NCBI GenBank assembly: GCA_964016885.1
Contig: OZ024741.1
Coordinates: forward strand, 135,222,001 to 135,286,000
Reading direction: 5' to 3'
Source of the DNA: Eledone cirrhosa
Lineage: Eukaryota
Length of the DNA: 64,000 nucleotides
Part shown: positions 8,180-60,605 of the stretch, in pieces
Numbering within the stretch: position 1 is the first letter of the stretch
How the letters are laid out: each line of letters starts with the position of its first letter
The notes under the pieces: generated by a model
Database searches by the model: none
What the model was told of the DNA's origin: nothing
Seen by the model: the letters and a program-made list of their open reading frames with translations, nothing else
Made by a program: the position numbers and the translations under genes

Positions 8180-8443
8180 TAGTAATAATAATAAATGTGA
8201 AGACTAAAATCCAAAGAGGGCTCGATAAGGATTATATGTACAAATATATATAAAAACTGTAGAGCAAATATTTATTAAAATAACAGATTAAAGTTTAAGC
8301 AAAGAATCATTGCTTTCACCCTTAGCGGGATCTTCTGAAACTAAAAAAAAATCAATCTACGTCGACAGATTGATTTTTTTTAGCTTCAGAAGATCCCGTT
8401 AAGCAACGATTCTTTCCTTAAACTTTAATCGGTTATTTTAATA
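8180..8443. mobile_element. TA-embedded inverted-repeat module (PLE-terminus-like); second copy at 59031-59259
   Basis: Arms 8273-8358 and 8366-8443 are inverted; the unique left segment GAAGACTAAAATCCAAAGAGGGCTCGATAAGG is shared with 59049. Confidence 0.8.
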
Positions 8444-9003
8444 TATATATATATATATATATATATATATATATATATATATATACATACATACATATAC
8501 ATGTGTGTGTGTGTGTGTGTGTGTGTGTGTGTGTGTGTGTGTGTGTGTGTGTGTGTGTGTGCCTGTGTATGCTTGTAAATATATATGCATGTATATGTAT
8601 GCACACCCACCCACACAAACACACACATACACAGTATACAATTTTTATGACAAACAAAGAGAGAAAAGTTTCAAATATGTATTGCCTGTAAATTAGTAGA
8701 GAATATACATATTACTAAAAATATTTAACCTTTCCACAGAAAACATTGTTTCTTCCTTTCCGGAGGTGGGAGCTTAGTTTTGATAGCAGAGCTAACATTT
8801 GTATTGCAGATTAACCTATCACATAAATCCATATAGATATGTAGATGAAAATACTAATATTATCAGTAGTTATATATTCCACTTTGTATATATATATATA
8901 TATATATATATATATATATATATATATATATATATATATATATATATAATTTTGTAAGATACTTGGTATGAAATCGTGTGTTGAAACAGATATTGTCTGT
9001 TAG

Positions 9004-9327
9004 ATTAAATATTTAGAGTCTGCTATGTATTGAGTACCTCACTTACTGTGGTTATCCCCGATTGAAACCTGGATGCACACACACACACACACAAATGTAT
9101 ATATATACATATATATGTATATATATATGTATATATATATATATATATATATATACACATATATATATACATATATATATATACATATATATATACATAT
9201 ATATATATATACATATATATATACATATATATATATACATATGTGTGTGTGTGTGCACCCAGGTTTCAATCGGGGATAACCACAGTAAGTGAGGTACTCA
9301 ATACATAGCAGACTCTAAATATTTAAT
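9004..9327. repeat. Inverted repeat (~75 bp unique arms) symmetric about a (CA)/(TA)/(TG) microsatellite; related copy at 21165-21330
   Basis: ATTAAATATTTAGAGTCTGCTATGTATTGAGTACCTCACTTACTGTGGTTATCCCCGATTGAAACCTGG and its reverse complement at 9258-9327. Confidence 0.9.
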
Positions 9328-9479
9328 ATAGAAATGGCTTCTACAAGACTAGAACTGTTTCATTCGAAGGATATCATCAGGAAAGCCGACTGTCAATGTT
9401 ATTGACAGTCGGCTTTCCTGATGATTTCCTTTTGATGAAACAGTTCTAGTCCTGTAGAAGCCATTTCTATATTAAATAT
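9319..9479. ncRNA. Palindromic module carrying a hammerhead-like core in each arm
   Basis: Plus arm CTGATGA (9418-9424)...GAAAC AGTTCTA GTC (9437-9451), mirrored on the minus strand; stem II is imperfect. Confidence 0.5.
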
Positions 9480-10179
9480 ATATATATATATATAATAATA
9501 CAAGCGCGAATGGTTACTCCTTCATTACGTTTATTGGTTGGTGACGCGCGTTTAGCTACTGATCAACTCAAGGTTCGATCTGTATCGATCTAACCCGACT
9601 CTTATTATACTACACTCTGTCTAGCTCTACACCTCGATACTAACGTGAACCTAAACATCGAGTGCTCACCCGGGTGAACCGACAGTAACTCCGCGTTATA
9701 CTCCCTGGATATATATATATATATATATATATATATATATATATATATATATATATGTACATATATATATATATATATATATATATATATATATATATAT
9801 ATATATATATATATATATATATATATATATGTACATATATATATATATATATATATATATATATATATATATATATATATATATATATATATATATATAT
9901 ATATATATATATATATATATATATATATATATATATAAATATATATATATGTATATATATAACGGAATTATATTTGAAACGTGGCGAGCGAAGTTTAGAA
10001 TAATTGAAATAGAAATAGAATCTTCACCGTAATACTTTTGACTATATAGTATAATAAAAAATATTACGGTGAAGCTTCTGTTTTTATTTCCACACACACA
10101 CACCCATACATACACCCACACACATACACACACACACAGACACACACACATACACACACAGACATATATATTATATATT

Positions 10180-10346
10180 TCGTTTCTGAATTTGTTTAGC
10201 AAGATTCTTTATCTGAAAACGTGTGTTGAAACCGATATTGTTATACTTTGGGAGGGTCATGTTGCCAATAAGAAACACACGCACCAGTTGCTTTCACTTC
10301 GTGTGTTTCTTATTGGCAACATGACCCTCCCAAAGTATAACAATAT
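10180..10346. mobile_element. TA-embedded inverted-repeat module; relatives at 8950-8997 and 14520-14865
   Basis: Arms 10235-10280 and 10300-10346; shared segment GCAAGATT..TTATCTGAAAACGTGTGTT...TTGTTATACTTTGGGAGGG.CATG.TGCCAATA. Confidence 0.8.
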
Positions 10347-57852: not shown

Positions 57853-57875
57853 TCCATTTTTTTTACTGAGATAGG

Positions 57876-58680
57876 CTACGACATGTTACCTCCGACATTA
57901 ACCCAAGCCTTGATGTCGTCATGGAAAGACCTAAATAAAGCAAGGAACTTATCAGGGAACCCAAATTTCTGGAGAACCTTCCATAATGCATCTCTGTTAA
58001 CAGTATCGAAAGTTTTTGTCAGATCGACAAAAACCTGATACAGATCCAAACCTTGTTCCATGCACTTCTCCTGGAGATGTCTAGCTGAGAAGATCATATC
58101 AGTAGTGCCGCGTCCAGCACGAAAACCAGATTGACTTTCAGGAAGAACACAATCTGCAATGTGTGTCAGCAGACGGTCCAGAAGCACCCTACATAAAACT
58201 TTCCCTACGACAGAAAGCAATGATATACCTCTGTAGTTCCCACAATCATTCCTGTTACCCTTTCCCTTGTACAAGACCACCATTACTGCATCTCTCCAGT
58301 CCTCAGGTACGGATTCATTAGCCCATATCCTGCCAAACAAAGAGTGAAGATATTGCAGGAGTCTCTCACCACCATATTGTAGGAGCTCAGCATGTATGCC
58401 ATCCATACCTGGAGACCTTCCACTGTTCAGCTTCAAGATAGCTACTGCAACCTCCACAAGCGTCGGAGGTTCTGCGAGAGCTACTTTCACAGGGCTTTCT
58501 GGAATGAGATTGAAGAAAACTTCACTGACGACAGGCGGCTGATTCAAAAGATCATCAAAGTGCTCTCGCCACCTTCGTAGAATTTCCTGTGAGTCACGAA
58601 GAAGTTCTTTGCCATCCTTGCTGCGAAGCGGTGTCACCAGATAAGAAGACGGTCCATAAACCTCACGCAAGAGACTGTAC
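57876..58680 (-). pseudogene. RTE reverse transcriptase, N-terminal part
   Basis: RWREHFDDLLN, GRSPGMDGIHAELL, YKGKGNRNDCGNYRGISLLSVVGK, LPESQSGFRAGRGTTDMIFSAR, FVDLTKTFDTVNR. Confidence 0.95.
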
Positions 58681-59030
58681 AACATTTTCTATTGAAAGAA
58701 TCTTTTTCCTTTCTACTATTTGTTTTTATATATATTAACTCGTGTGTGACTTTTCTACATTCGATATATTATATATATATATATATATATATATATATAT
58801 ATATATATATATATAAATCTTTCCCTGAGTTCAGTCTTTTTCGTTGGTATGGCAATGCGGCTGGACTGCCGGTCGCTATATTTGATTTGCAAAGCTGTCT
58901 AAACATATTGTTATAACCCTGGGGTATTATTCTCCATCGAGTGCTAAAGCTACATTCCGAATCTGCATTCGTTAGCTTAGCCGCAGCCTAAAGCTTCGTT
59001 AATGCTGTACTAAAATTTGTATATATATAT

Positions 59031-59259
59031 GAGTAATAATAATAAATTTGAAGACTAAAATCCAAAGAGGGCTCGATAAGGATATATATATATCAAATAT
59101 ATAAGAACCGTAGAGAAAATATTTATTAAAATAACAGATTAAAGTTTAAGCAAAGAATCGCTGCTTTCACCCTTAACGGGATCTTCTGAAAGTTTCAGAA
59201 GATCCGTTAAGGGTGAAAGCAGCGATTTTTTGCTTAAACTTTAATCTGTTATTTTAATA
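59031..59259. mobile_element. Second copy of the 8180-8443 module; hammerhead-like arm
   Basis: Palindrome 59124-59259; arm consensus CAGAAGA TCCC GTTAA GGGT GAAA GCAGCGA TTC; (TA)n on both sides. Confidence 0.8.
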
Positions 59260-60605
59260 TATATATATATATATATATATATATATATATATATATATAT
59301 ATATATATGTATTGAAGTTTCCGTTGAAAATTGAAAAAATCATAGGAGTGAAGAGTGCTCTGTGTAAGTACCAGAGCAAAATTTAATGTATAATAAACAA
59401 TACAATATAATTACCTCATTACCAGAGGTTTCCCGAATAAGACGAATACGAAAAACGTTCTCATTCGTTCGTCGGACAAGGCAATTTAAAACATAGTGAA
59501 ATATTTGAAAAGTCTCCTCAAGAAATACAAGAGTTTAACGGGCAAAAAATATATAAATAAAAGTAATGCAAGAGACATATAAAAAAATAAGGAAATATAG
59601 TTAGGGTATGTGTATATGTATATAATATGTGTTGAAAAAGAAATTGTAAGATAATATAGTTAACACGCATCCAGATACAGGTATTAAATACACATACGAG
59701 TATGAAAGCACGCGTATAAACACACACACACGCGCGGTCACTTATATGCGGAAGATAAAGAGGAAAGGGAGAGTAATAGTAAAAAGAAGTGTCATTCTCG
59801 ATATATGTATAAAAATGAAACAATATATGAAAAAAATGTTTAAATCAAAGAGAAAGTAATCAATTAACACTAGAGAAAAGAAAACAAACATAGGTACGCA
59901 CGTACACACATATATATATGAAAAAATATTTATACACACAAATACGTACAGACAAAAGCGCATGCATGCGTACATACATACACACGAGGCACGTATATAT
60001 ATATATATATATCGCCACATGTATATCTAATCACACGTACGTACGCGACTATACATATACACCCATACATACATATACATATACACACATATACATACAC
60101 ATACACATACATTCACCCGCATACACACACACACGTATAAATAAGTATGTAAAAAACATAGATATAAAAACACACATACACACACATATATATACGTACG
60201 CACGTACACATACGGAGGCGTTCATATACATATACACAACGTATACACACATAAGCACACTCACACATATAGATACAGATTATAAACCAGCCGTATGAAT
60301 AAATGAGTACAAATATAAAATCGACTGCGAAACAACAGAATATATCTGGAGTTGAAAACGCAAGTGACATGTGATATCAGGTAGTGAAAGAAAATGGGGA
60401 AGTAAAATGCGAAATGTGAAGATATTAGGTAAGTGAATCGAAAAGTAGGGGGGGGGGGGGGGGTTACTGGTGGCTGTGAAGTAAAAATAAAAATAAAAAT
60501 AAAAATAAAAATAAAAATAAAAATAAAAATAAAAATAAAAATAAAAGTAAATCAGAAAGAGAAGTCTGTAAAGAGGATAATTTAAGGAAAGTGAAGAATA
60601 AGAGT

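Follow-up and report, generated by a model that had tools for sequence, protein, structure and literature searches.

Hammerhead-bearing modules at (TA)n tracts of Eledone cirrhosa: probable 3' ends of coding Penelope-like elements

A 64,000-nucleotide stretch of Eledone cirrhosa DNA (contig OZ024741.1, positions 135,222,001 to 135,286,000; hereafter the window, whose numbering is used throughout) is rich in (TA)n tracts, has a GC content of 34% and carries, scattered over most of its length, short modules containing a hammerhead-ribozyme-like core. An earlier note, made from the letters alone, read these modules as either extremely truncated insertions of Penelope-like elements (PLEs) or a diverse non-autonomous class resembling ribozyme-bearing short interspersed elements (SINEs) or retrozymes, leaving the question of what kind of element produces them in this 3.0-Gb genome. 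We conclude, with a probability of roughly 0.93, that each module is what remains of the 3' end of a protein-coding PLE. At least ten families, six Hydra-type and four Neptune-type, would have contributed; the hammerhead sits close to their 3' end, and early arrest of target-primed reverse transcription at (TA)n cuts is the likely origin of the copies. The families were lettered after their window cores as A (30314 and 28055), B (28278), C (28460), D (30593), E (23360), F (59195), G (9418), H (56014), I (34386) and J (34893).

Colinearity of the modules with Penelope-like coding sequences

Searching the species' own genome with nine of the families gave 530-3,857 first-look candidates each, and the 1.5-kb flanks of the 20-30 best matches were read for open reading frames (ORFs). 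Choosing loci by best match favours similar copies over long ones, and the counts of ORF links are lower bounds, confined to the 1.5-kb flanks unless extended. The search with family C returned no match, itself included, and C was traced in loci already collected. In each of the ten families one copy or more is colinear with a PLE ORF that ends in a GIY-YIG-type endonuclease, the order being ORF, 3' untranslated region (UTR) of ~0.5-1.5 kb, hammerhead and (TA)n. Colinear ORFs were found at 11/25 loci of B, 7/19 of A outside the window, 6/19 of E in addition to two window copies, 2/24 of D, 2/19 of H, 2/24 of I plus locus L112, and 1/19 of J, where an ORF in inverted orientation, with 87.6% identity across 1,234 nt, was also found. 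Family F gave 0/19 in the first flanks and was then linked at L171, on extension, and at L114, from the genome sample described below; family G gave 0/25 in a first search and 1/29 in a second, along with two inverted copies of its own ORF at 89-93% (L340, L338 and L322 being the loci of the link). Family C is colinear with an ORF at L115, and L127 is supportive. Sequence of the reverse transcriptase (RT) lies upstream of the endonuclease in L173, L172, L181, L176, L270 and L115.

Two modules of the window, at 23360 and 59309-59616, are the ends of family E copies that reach the ORF within the window itself. One is a 5'-truncated Hydra-type PLE of 1.8 kb (21727-23527, +) with the endonuclease C-terminus at 21741-21971, ~1.3 kb of 3' UTR, a U4C core at 23361, a tail and (TA)32; the other, of 1.9 kb (59309-61203, -), has an endonuclease frame at 60609-61130, the 3' UTR, a U4C core at 59475 and a tail. 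The two are 85-93% alike over 1.7 kb, with the endonuclease frame in both. The first alternative of the earlier note, truncated PLE insertions, is supported by ORF-colinear copies in 10/10 families.

Only colinear copies were counted, because the inverted ORFs that abut modules in L091, L321 and L268 belong to other families, and an inverted ORF next to a module was rejected as proof of identity. Junctions at which a truncated copy lies against an ORF fragment of a different PLE family without a TA spacer, some of them inverted, were noted at these three loci and at 61172-61203 of the window, where an RT fragment of a different Neptune-like PLE family (61172-61762, -; 86% to the inverted RT in L268) abuts the 5' end of the second E copy. 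Such junctions may have arisen by template switching or by two different elements priming at one break.

By their motifs, families A, B, D, E, F and G are classed as Hydra-type and C, H, I and J as Neptune-type. The Hydra linker CxCX5C was seen in all six of the former, whose C-terminal endonuclease is without CCHH; C-terminal CxxC and CxH were read in A, B, E, F and G, and DKT was found in family A (L182) and together with RWR in the related L131, the copies of other families ending before these motifs. In the Neptune-type families the linker is CX4CxxC and the RT is followed by a CCHH endonuclease; linker and C..C/H/H were read in L115, L242, L176 and L270, with single-copy substitutions among them. 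Assignment of the window ORF to Naiad was rejected, since L181 and L185 carry the endonuclease at the C-terminus. NCBI lists one protein homologous to the family A ORF (P0012, 46% identity) as 'GATA zinc finger domain-containing protein 14-like'; this is probably a Hydra-type PLE ORF under a mistaken annotation. The two long family D copies (L177, L178) both have upstream of them long, nearly intact ORFs, of up to 1,141 aa, of retrotransposons without long terminal repeats (non-LTR).

Several observations weigh against the derivation from coding PLEs. For C, G and J the link depends on a single clearly colinear copy per family. No PLE ORF had an RT match in Pfam, and the window PLE frames had neither an RT nor an endonuclease match there, the GIY-YIG match being for L115 only (E 1e-7); a PDB search came back empty. 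The RTs were identified by motifs (YRDD or YADD-type) and by a match by eye to Hydra-1_Obim in the supplement of Craig et al. Neither an intact full-length copy nor a tandem pseudo-LTR was recovered among the loci, no search having been aimed at these, and ORF tracing covered the ten window families, the genome having other hammerhead clusters besides (29 are distinguished below).

Hammerhead cores and their association with (TA)n

The hammerhead descriptor comprised the core, a stem II of at least 3 pairs, stem III and a stem I of at least 3-4 pairs. It was run on the window, with 30 block-wise (local) dinucleotide shuffles as control, and on a genome sample of 100 evenly spaced 10-kb stretches (1 Mb), with 10 shuffles. 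The strict scan of the window returned three exact C3-G8 type-I cores, at 30314, 30593(-) and 34386, all described earlier as intact, versus 0 in each of the 30 shuffles; allowing a U3-A8 core raised the matches to four by adding 28460. The 1-Mb sample held 40 matches (35 C3-G8, 5 U3-A8) compared with 0-3 in the shuffles. A (TA)5+ tract lay within 200 nt downstream of 34/40 sample matches and upstream of 8/40, the background being 15.8%. Hammerhead matches at all non-duplicate loci, some of them selected by family, numbered 143 and fell into 29 clusters with distinct stem sequences, across which pairing is maintained, the scan itself requiring pairing; among A, D and a third abundant cluster the stem III palindromes alternate between GC-centred and AT-centred. 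Together, the excess over shuffled sequence, the directional (TA)n and the 29 clusters of differing stems indicate that the motif, its orientation and its link to TA are real.

Chance matches in AT-rich, low-complexity DNA would be favoured by the shortness of the core and the GC content of 34%, and with two core mismatches allowed the shuffles did reach 2 matches against the 3 observed. This explanation is refuted by the strict scans of window and sample against their shuffles (40 sample matches against 0-3) and by the directional TA adjacency; the pairing across clusters (within the limit just given) and the candidates returned by each of the nine family searches also speak against it. An Rfam scan of the window gave no hammerhead among the matches listed (the best 150 of 264), which were mostly miRNA models on microsatellites, and is uninformative for minimal hammerheads.

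Hammerhead-like sequence is present at all 11 coordinates named in the earlier note, whose description of the loci was confirmed in part. Its density of about one per 6 kb holds in the window when partial copies are counted, but not genome-wide, where strict cores occur once per 25 kb. The core at 9418, listed there as intact, fails the strict scan because its stem II is weak, with a U.U closure in the family. Among those listed as degenerate or partial, 28055 is truly decayed, having lost G8, and at 28278 a long U3-A8 hammerhead breaks off within loop II. No decay is involved at 28460 and 56014, which carry the published U3-A8 covariant, found in 7/8 and 20/21 copies of their families. Nor is decay seen at 23360, 59195 and 34893, whose non-canonical cores are family-wide: U4C in 16/22 copies of E, U4A in 48/56 of F and C3A in 8/10 of J, denominators that take in a few junction artefacts. 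The conserved core with its three helices is found in A, D and I (C3-G8) and in B and C (U3-A8), while H and G have the consensus core with stem II closed by U.U. Families E, F and J depart from the type-I consensus core; F also has U.U at the base of stem II, and stem I is not evident in J. A relative of family C with a U3-A8 core carries GCAA in place of GAAA in 5/5 loci (L143:2403-2547, L059, L091, L163 and L068), another fixed non-canonical core.

The palindromic stem III described as usual for these modules occurs in 6/10 families, the other four (B, E, F and G) having a closed hairpin. The families are likewise not all sequence-unrelated: A and D have stem I and the frame of stem III in common, and C, H and J have stem III in common. 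On monomer folding the hammerhead helices were clear only for A and B and partial for E, as expected for minimal forms, and no argument here draws on the folding. PLE hammerhead variants are reportedly the subject of Lunse et al. 2017, where U4A and C3A may be described. Excerpts of PMC3088659 report U4C in a viroid, with low activity in vitro.

Insertion anatomy, rival readings and the elements of the window

The ten references mark 86 arms in 59 insertions in the 1-Mb sample, 17.2 kb in all (1.7%); they miss diverged subfamilies, D, H and J have no arm in the sample, and its one long C arm is the reference itself. The modules are thus a major genome component, as claimed earlier, by copy number (~59 insertions per Mb) but not by mass. 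With all families pooled, (TA)3+ lay within 22 nt of the 3' end in 69/86 arms versus a background of 6%. The 5' ends fell within 100 nt upstream of the predicted cleavage site in 67/86 arms, at 100-400 nt in 13 and further in 6. In seven families (A-G) the 3' end falls at one of two fixed positions, separated by 63-105 nt (B +20/+97, F +29/+114, G +17/+87, A +43/+132), whereas a single 3' end was seen for H and J and mostly a single one for I.

The inverted partial copies noted earlier are confirmed. Head-to-head pairs join a short-ended and a tail-bearing arm in 65/74 cases (binomial p ~7e-12; about half would be expected at random if the ends were independent), a count in which one F arm is used twice and one G 'pair' consists of two tail fragments. 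Mixed pairs made up 45/49 in B, E, F and G, at loci obtained with the tested family left out, and 20/25 in A, C and D, where the family was not left out. Pair junctions are copy-specific, and spreading of the family F palindrome as one unit was rejected, since its junctions differ. Variable 5' ends and inversion junctions that differ between copies are also contrary to the fixed non-coding boundaries of a non-autonomous class. Insertions starting at the ribozyme cut are unsupported, only 3/170 arms lying within 3 nt of the predicted site. The 3' UTRs of E and G contain several hundred bases of TG/TA-rich low-complexity sequence (window 22140-23200; L213, L327), so that these elements spread microsatellite-like DNA; many G copies are truncated within it.

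The pattern could be produced as follows. The element's GIY-YIG endonuclease would nick both strands of a TA tract, and the RT would prime from each nick at one of two internal RNA start sites; both cDNAs would often abort after ~60-150 nt and then join head to head, giving palindromes. Each insertion would lengthen or split the TA tract, which would remain a target, and families would consequently stack, the short copies being presumably dead on arrival. The hammerhead, at 20-130 nt from the putative RT start sites, would be included in almost any insertion, and its over-representation in stubs would follow from its adjoining the RT start. Excerpts of PMC11167929 describe an anole PLE protein that nicks and extends both strands at AT-rich DNA, two internal RNA start sites that set the tail, and insertion in vitro that is equally good with a dead ribozyme. 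The insertion pattern would be explained in this way without need for self-cleavage. Fold-back of one cDNA, instead of two-ended priming, is a possible alternative origin of the palindromes.

A further point against derivation from coding elements is that 38/50 paired arms of family B stop 30-50 nt upstream of the cleavage site (9/16 in G, 8/24 in F), a pile-up that could also come from a short non-coding master. In F and G this stop point coincides with the ribozyme's 5' edge, in B with the middle of loop II, so no single feature of the ribozyme sets it. Some families, with B as the foremost candidate, could have given rise to short non-autonomous masters, such as a ribozyme SINE or a palindromic unit like a miniature inverted-repeat transposable element (MITE), copied in trans by PLE proteins. 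The many arms ending within 100 nt of the cleavage site suit such masters, as do the non-autonomous PLE derivatives published in excerpts of Craig 2021 (Chlamys) and of bioRxiv 10.64898/2026.07.22.740005 (retrozymes). We nevertheless consider this origin very unlikely, given that only 2/26 B junctions are alike by eye and F junctions vary, that short B copies are without the 5' half of the hammerhead, and that every family has long ORF-linked copies, with lengths forming a continuum. Still more improbable, to the point of being nearly negligible, is an origin as monomers of non-LTR retrozymes, whose hammerhead repeats of 150-400 nt stand in tandem and yield circular RNAs: the type-I fold, the palindromic stem III of six families and the dispersed retrozyme monomers of Xenopus agree with it, but no head-to-tail array of modules was found in the window (among the best 150 of 157 tandem-repeat rows and by self-alignment), the pairs are head-to-head, and the sequence upstream of a module is UTR and ORF and not another unit. 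With ORF-colinear copies in 10/10 families and variable 5' ends, the non-autonomous alternative of the earlier note fails the test that the note itself set, and its interpretation is upheld only in its truncated-PLE half.

The 100-350 bp given earlier for the modules does not hold for all of them, the exceptions including the two E copies reaching the ORF and the long 3' ends of H and J below. A family F pair with a Hydra-type PLE 3' end lies at 8182-8440 (tail-bearing arm 8182-8358, -; short arm 8356-8440, +; U4A cores 8337(-) and 8387(+)), and a second F pair at 59033-59256 (tail arm 59033-59191, -; short arm 59191-59256, +; U4A cores 59188(-) and 59196(+)). The Hydra-type G pair at 9262-9475 comprises a tail arm (9262-9394, -, core 9380) and a short arm (9399-9475, +, the weak-stem II core 9418), and lone G tail fragments occur at 9012-9069, 21170-21214 and 21277-21324. 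An inverted short arm of E (21570-21717, -, core 21608) is the probable partner of the adjoining long copy. Region 27900-31200 is repetitive, two contig sets aligning to it, and contains a family A 3' end (27979-28145, +) with the decayed core 28055, the Hydra-type B pair (28202-28397), both of whose arms end inside loop II of a U3-A8 hammerhead with closed stem III and whose + arm bears the tail, and the Neptune-type C 3' end (28417-28565, +) with its U3-A8 core at 28460. It continues with a second A 3' end (30131-30411, +), which has the canonical core 30314, a near-palindromic stem III and an inverted partial copy at 30131-30228 (core 30149, -) and ends at (TA)38, then with the Hydra-type D pair at 30488-30871 (short arm 30488-30661, -, canonical core 30593; tail arm 30666-30871, +) and a further D fragment (30913-30984, -). 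In the Neptune-type I 3' end (34288-34435, +) the core at 34386 is canonical and minimal, A9 is followed by one additional nucleotide, and stem III is a palindrome of 4 nt; next comes the Neptune-type J 3' end of ~700 nt (34795-35490, -; C3A core 34893, stem I not evident). The earlier note does not list a PLE end at 35583-36442 (-), which ends at (TA)34 and contains both part of a Hydra-like endonuclease (36272-36442) and, at 35790, a core resembling a hammerhead. A second B pair (43487-43691) and a C fragment with only sequence downstream of the predicted cleavage site (51429-51492, +) precede the Neptune-type H 3' end of ~800 nt (55365-56172, +), which holds a SINE-like insert at 55771-55954 and a U3-A8 core at 56014; a further H fragment is at 58680-58763.

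Other repeats were also noted. A very abundant young fold-back family (10179-10346 and 14511-14864; 15 loci in 600 kb, 94% identity) has no strict hammerhead match and may be either a MITE or one more PLE end. A SINE-like repeat of ~190 nt is abundant, with copies at 5599-5790, 12431-12597, 21389-21546, 23980-24180, 29979-30128, 39113-39483, 48732-49087, 51605-51800 and 55771-55957, and inside PLE UTRs at several loci. The minus strand carries at 56490-58688 a broken long interspersed element with RVT_1 matches, which we take from its resemblance to be RTE-like. Minisatellite arrays at 545-1525, 40655-41024 and 49764-50375 have units of 47, 96 and 44 bp; a perfect 74-nt palindrome lies at 4469-4542, and further inverted repeats around or near microsatellites at 30981-31031 with 31126-31176 and at 63336-63396.

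Known systems and the role of the ribozyme

The class itself is already in the literature, which covers minimal hammerheads at the ends of PLEs, cores of the U3-A8 form, truncated copies standing alone, tails on one side only, insertion directed to (TA)n and a Hydra family from octopus. According to excerpts of Craig et al. 2021 (PMC8557442), Hydra elements have a C-terminal endonuclease, the CxCX5C linker, DKT and no CCHH, and the supplement holds an octopus family, Hydra-1_Obim, with (TA)n preference and a hammerhead. The six families here agree in the C-terminal position of the endonuclease, its lack of CCHH and the linker, with DKT read in A, and further in the GIY-YIG type of the endonuclease, in the hammerhead near the 3' end and in (TA)n insertion with a one-sided tail and an inverted truncated partner. 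They differ in number, searches of the supplement having found one octopus Hydra family, in 3' UTRs of 0.7-1.5 kb, in tails of 70-105 nt versus the 30-40 nt given in the published excerpts, and in the fixed U4 variants of E and F; the Hydra-1_Obim hammerhead differs by eye from all ten families. Neptune-type PLEs (CX2-5CxxC linker, CCHH endonuclease, microsatellite bias) are matched by C, H, I and J, classed here by motifs only, in the linker, in an endonuclease of CCHH type that follows the RT and in minimal hammerheads whose stem III is a palindrome of 4-6 nt, but not in the C3A core without clear stem I of J.

In excerpts of Cervera and De la Pena 2014 (PMC4209133), truncated PLEs account for solo motifs in the thousands, a genome can have several consensus families, and paired motifs on opposite strands lie 100-700 bp from each other; the U3-A8 covariant, one additional nucleotide following A9 and palindromic forms of stem III are described as well. 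Solo motifs, opposite-strand pairs and these three structural features recur here, whereas B, E, F and G have the closed hairpin stem III of monomer-type hammerheads, and the family-wide U4A and C3A cores were not among the variants found in those excerpts. Non-LTR retrozymes share the type-I hammerhead and PLE ancestry; they are non-coding head-to-tail tandem units in excerpts of bioRxiv 10.64898/2026.07.22.740005, unlike the window modules, which are head-to-head or solo ends of coding elements. No catalogue of octopus hammerhead PLE families was found in the partly available literature beyond the entries of Craig et al. and general repeat annotation (PMC13282606), and twin priming in PLEs was not found described, only an unrelated review turning up.

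Extrapolated to the 3-Gb genome, the sample corresponds to ~180,000 PLE stubs of 60-300 nt. In annotation, such palindromes flanked by TA can end up among MITEs or unclassified SINEs, and excerpts of the octopus repeat annotation list 893 unclassified recently active SINE families (PMC13282606). The young, very abundant families F (U4A) and E (U4C) spread with broken cores; if these are non-cleaving, the ribozyme would be dispensable for PLE spread in vivo and the pairing of short with tail-bearing arms (65/74) would be the footprint of asymmetric two-ended priming, with a different RNA start site for each DNA strand, a tentative suggestion to which we give somewhat less than even odds. Ten co-existing families with canonical, covariant and non-canonical cores provide a natural series for the question of what role the hammerhead plays in PLEs.

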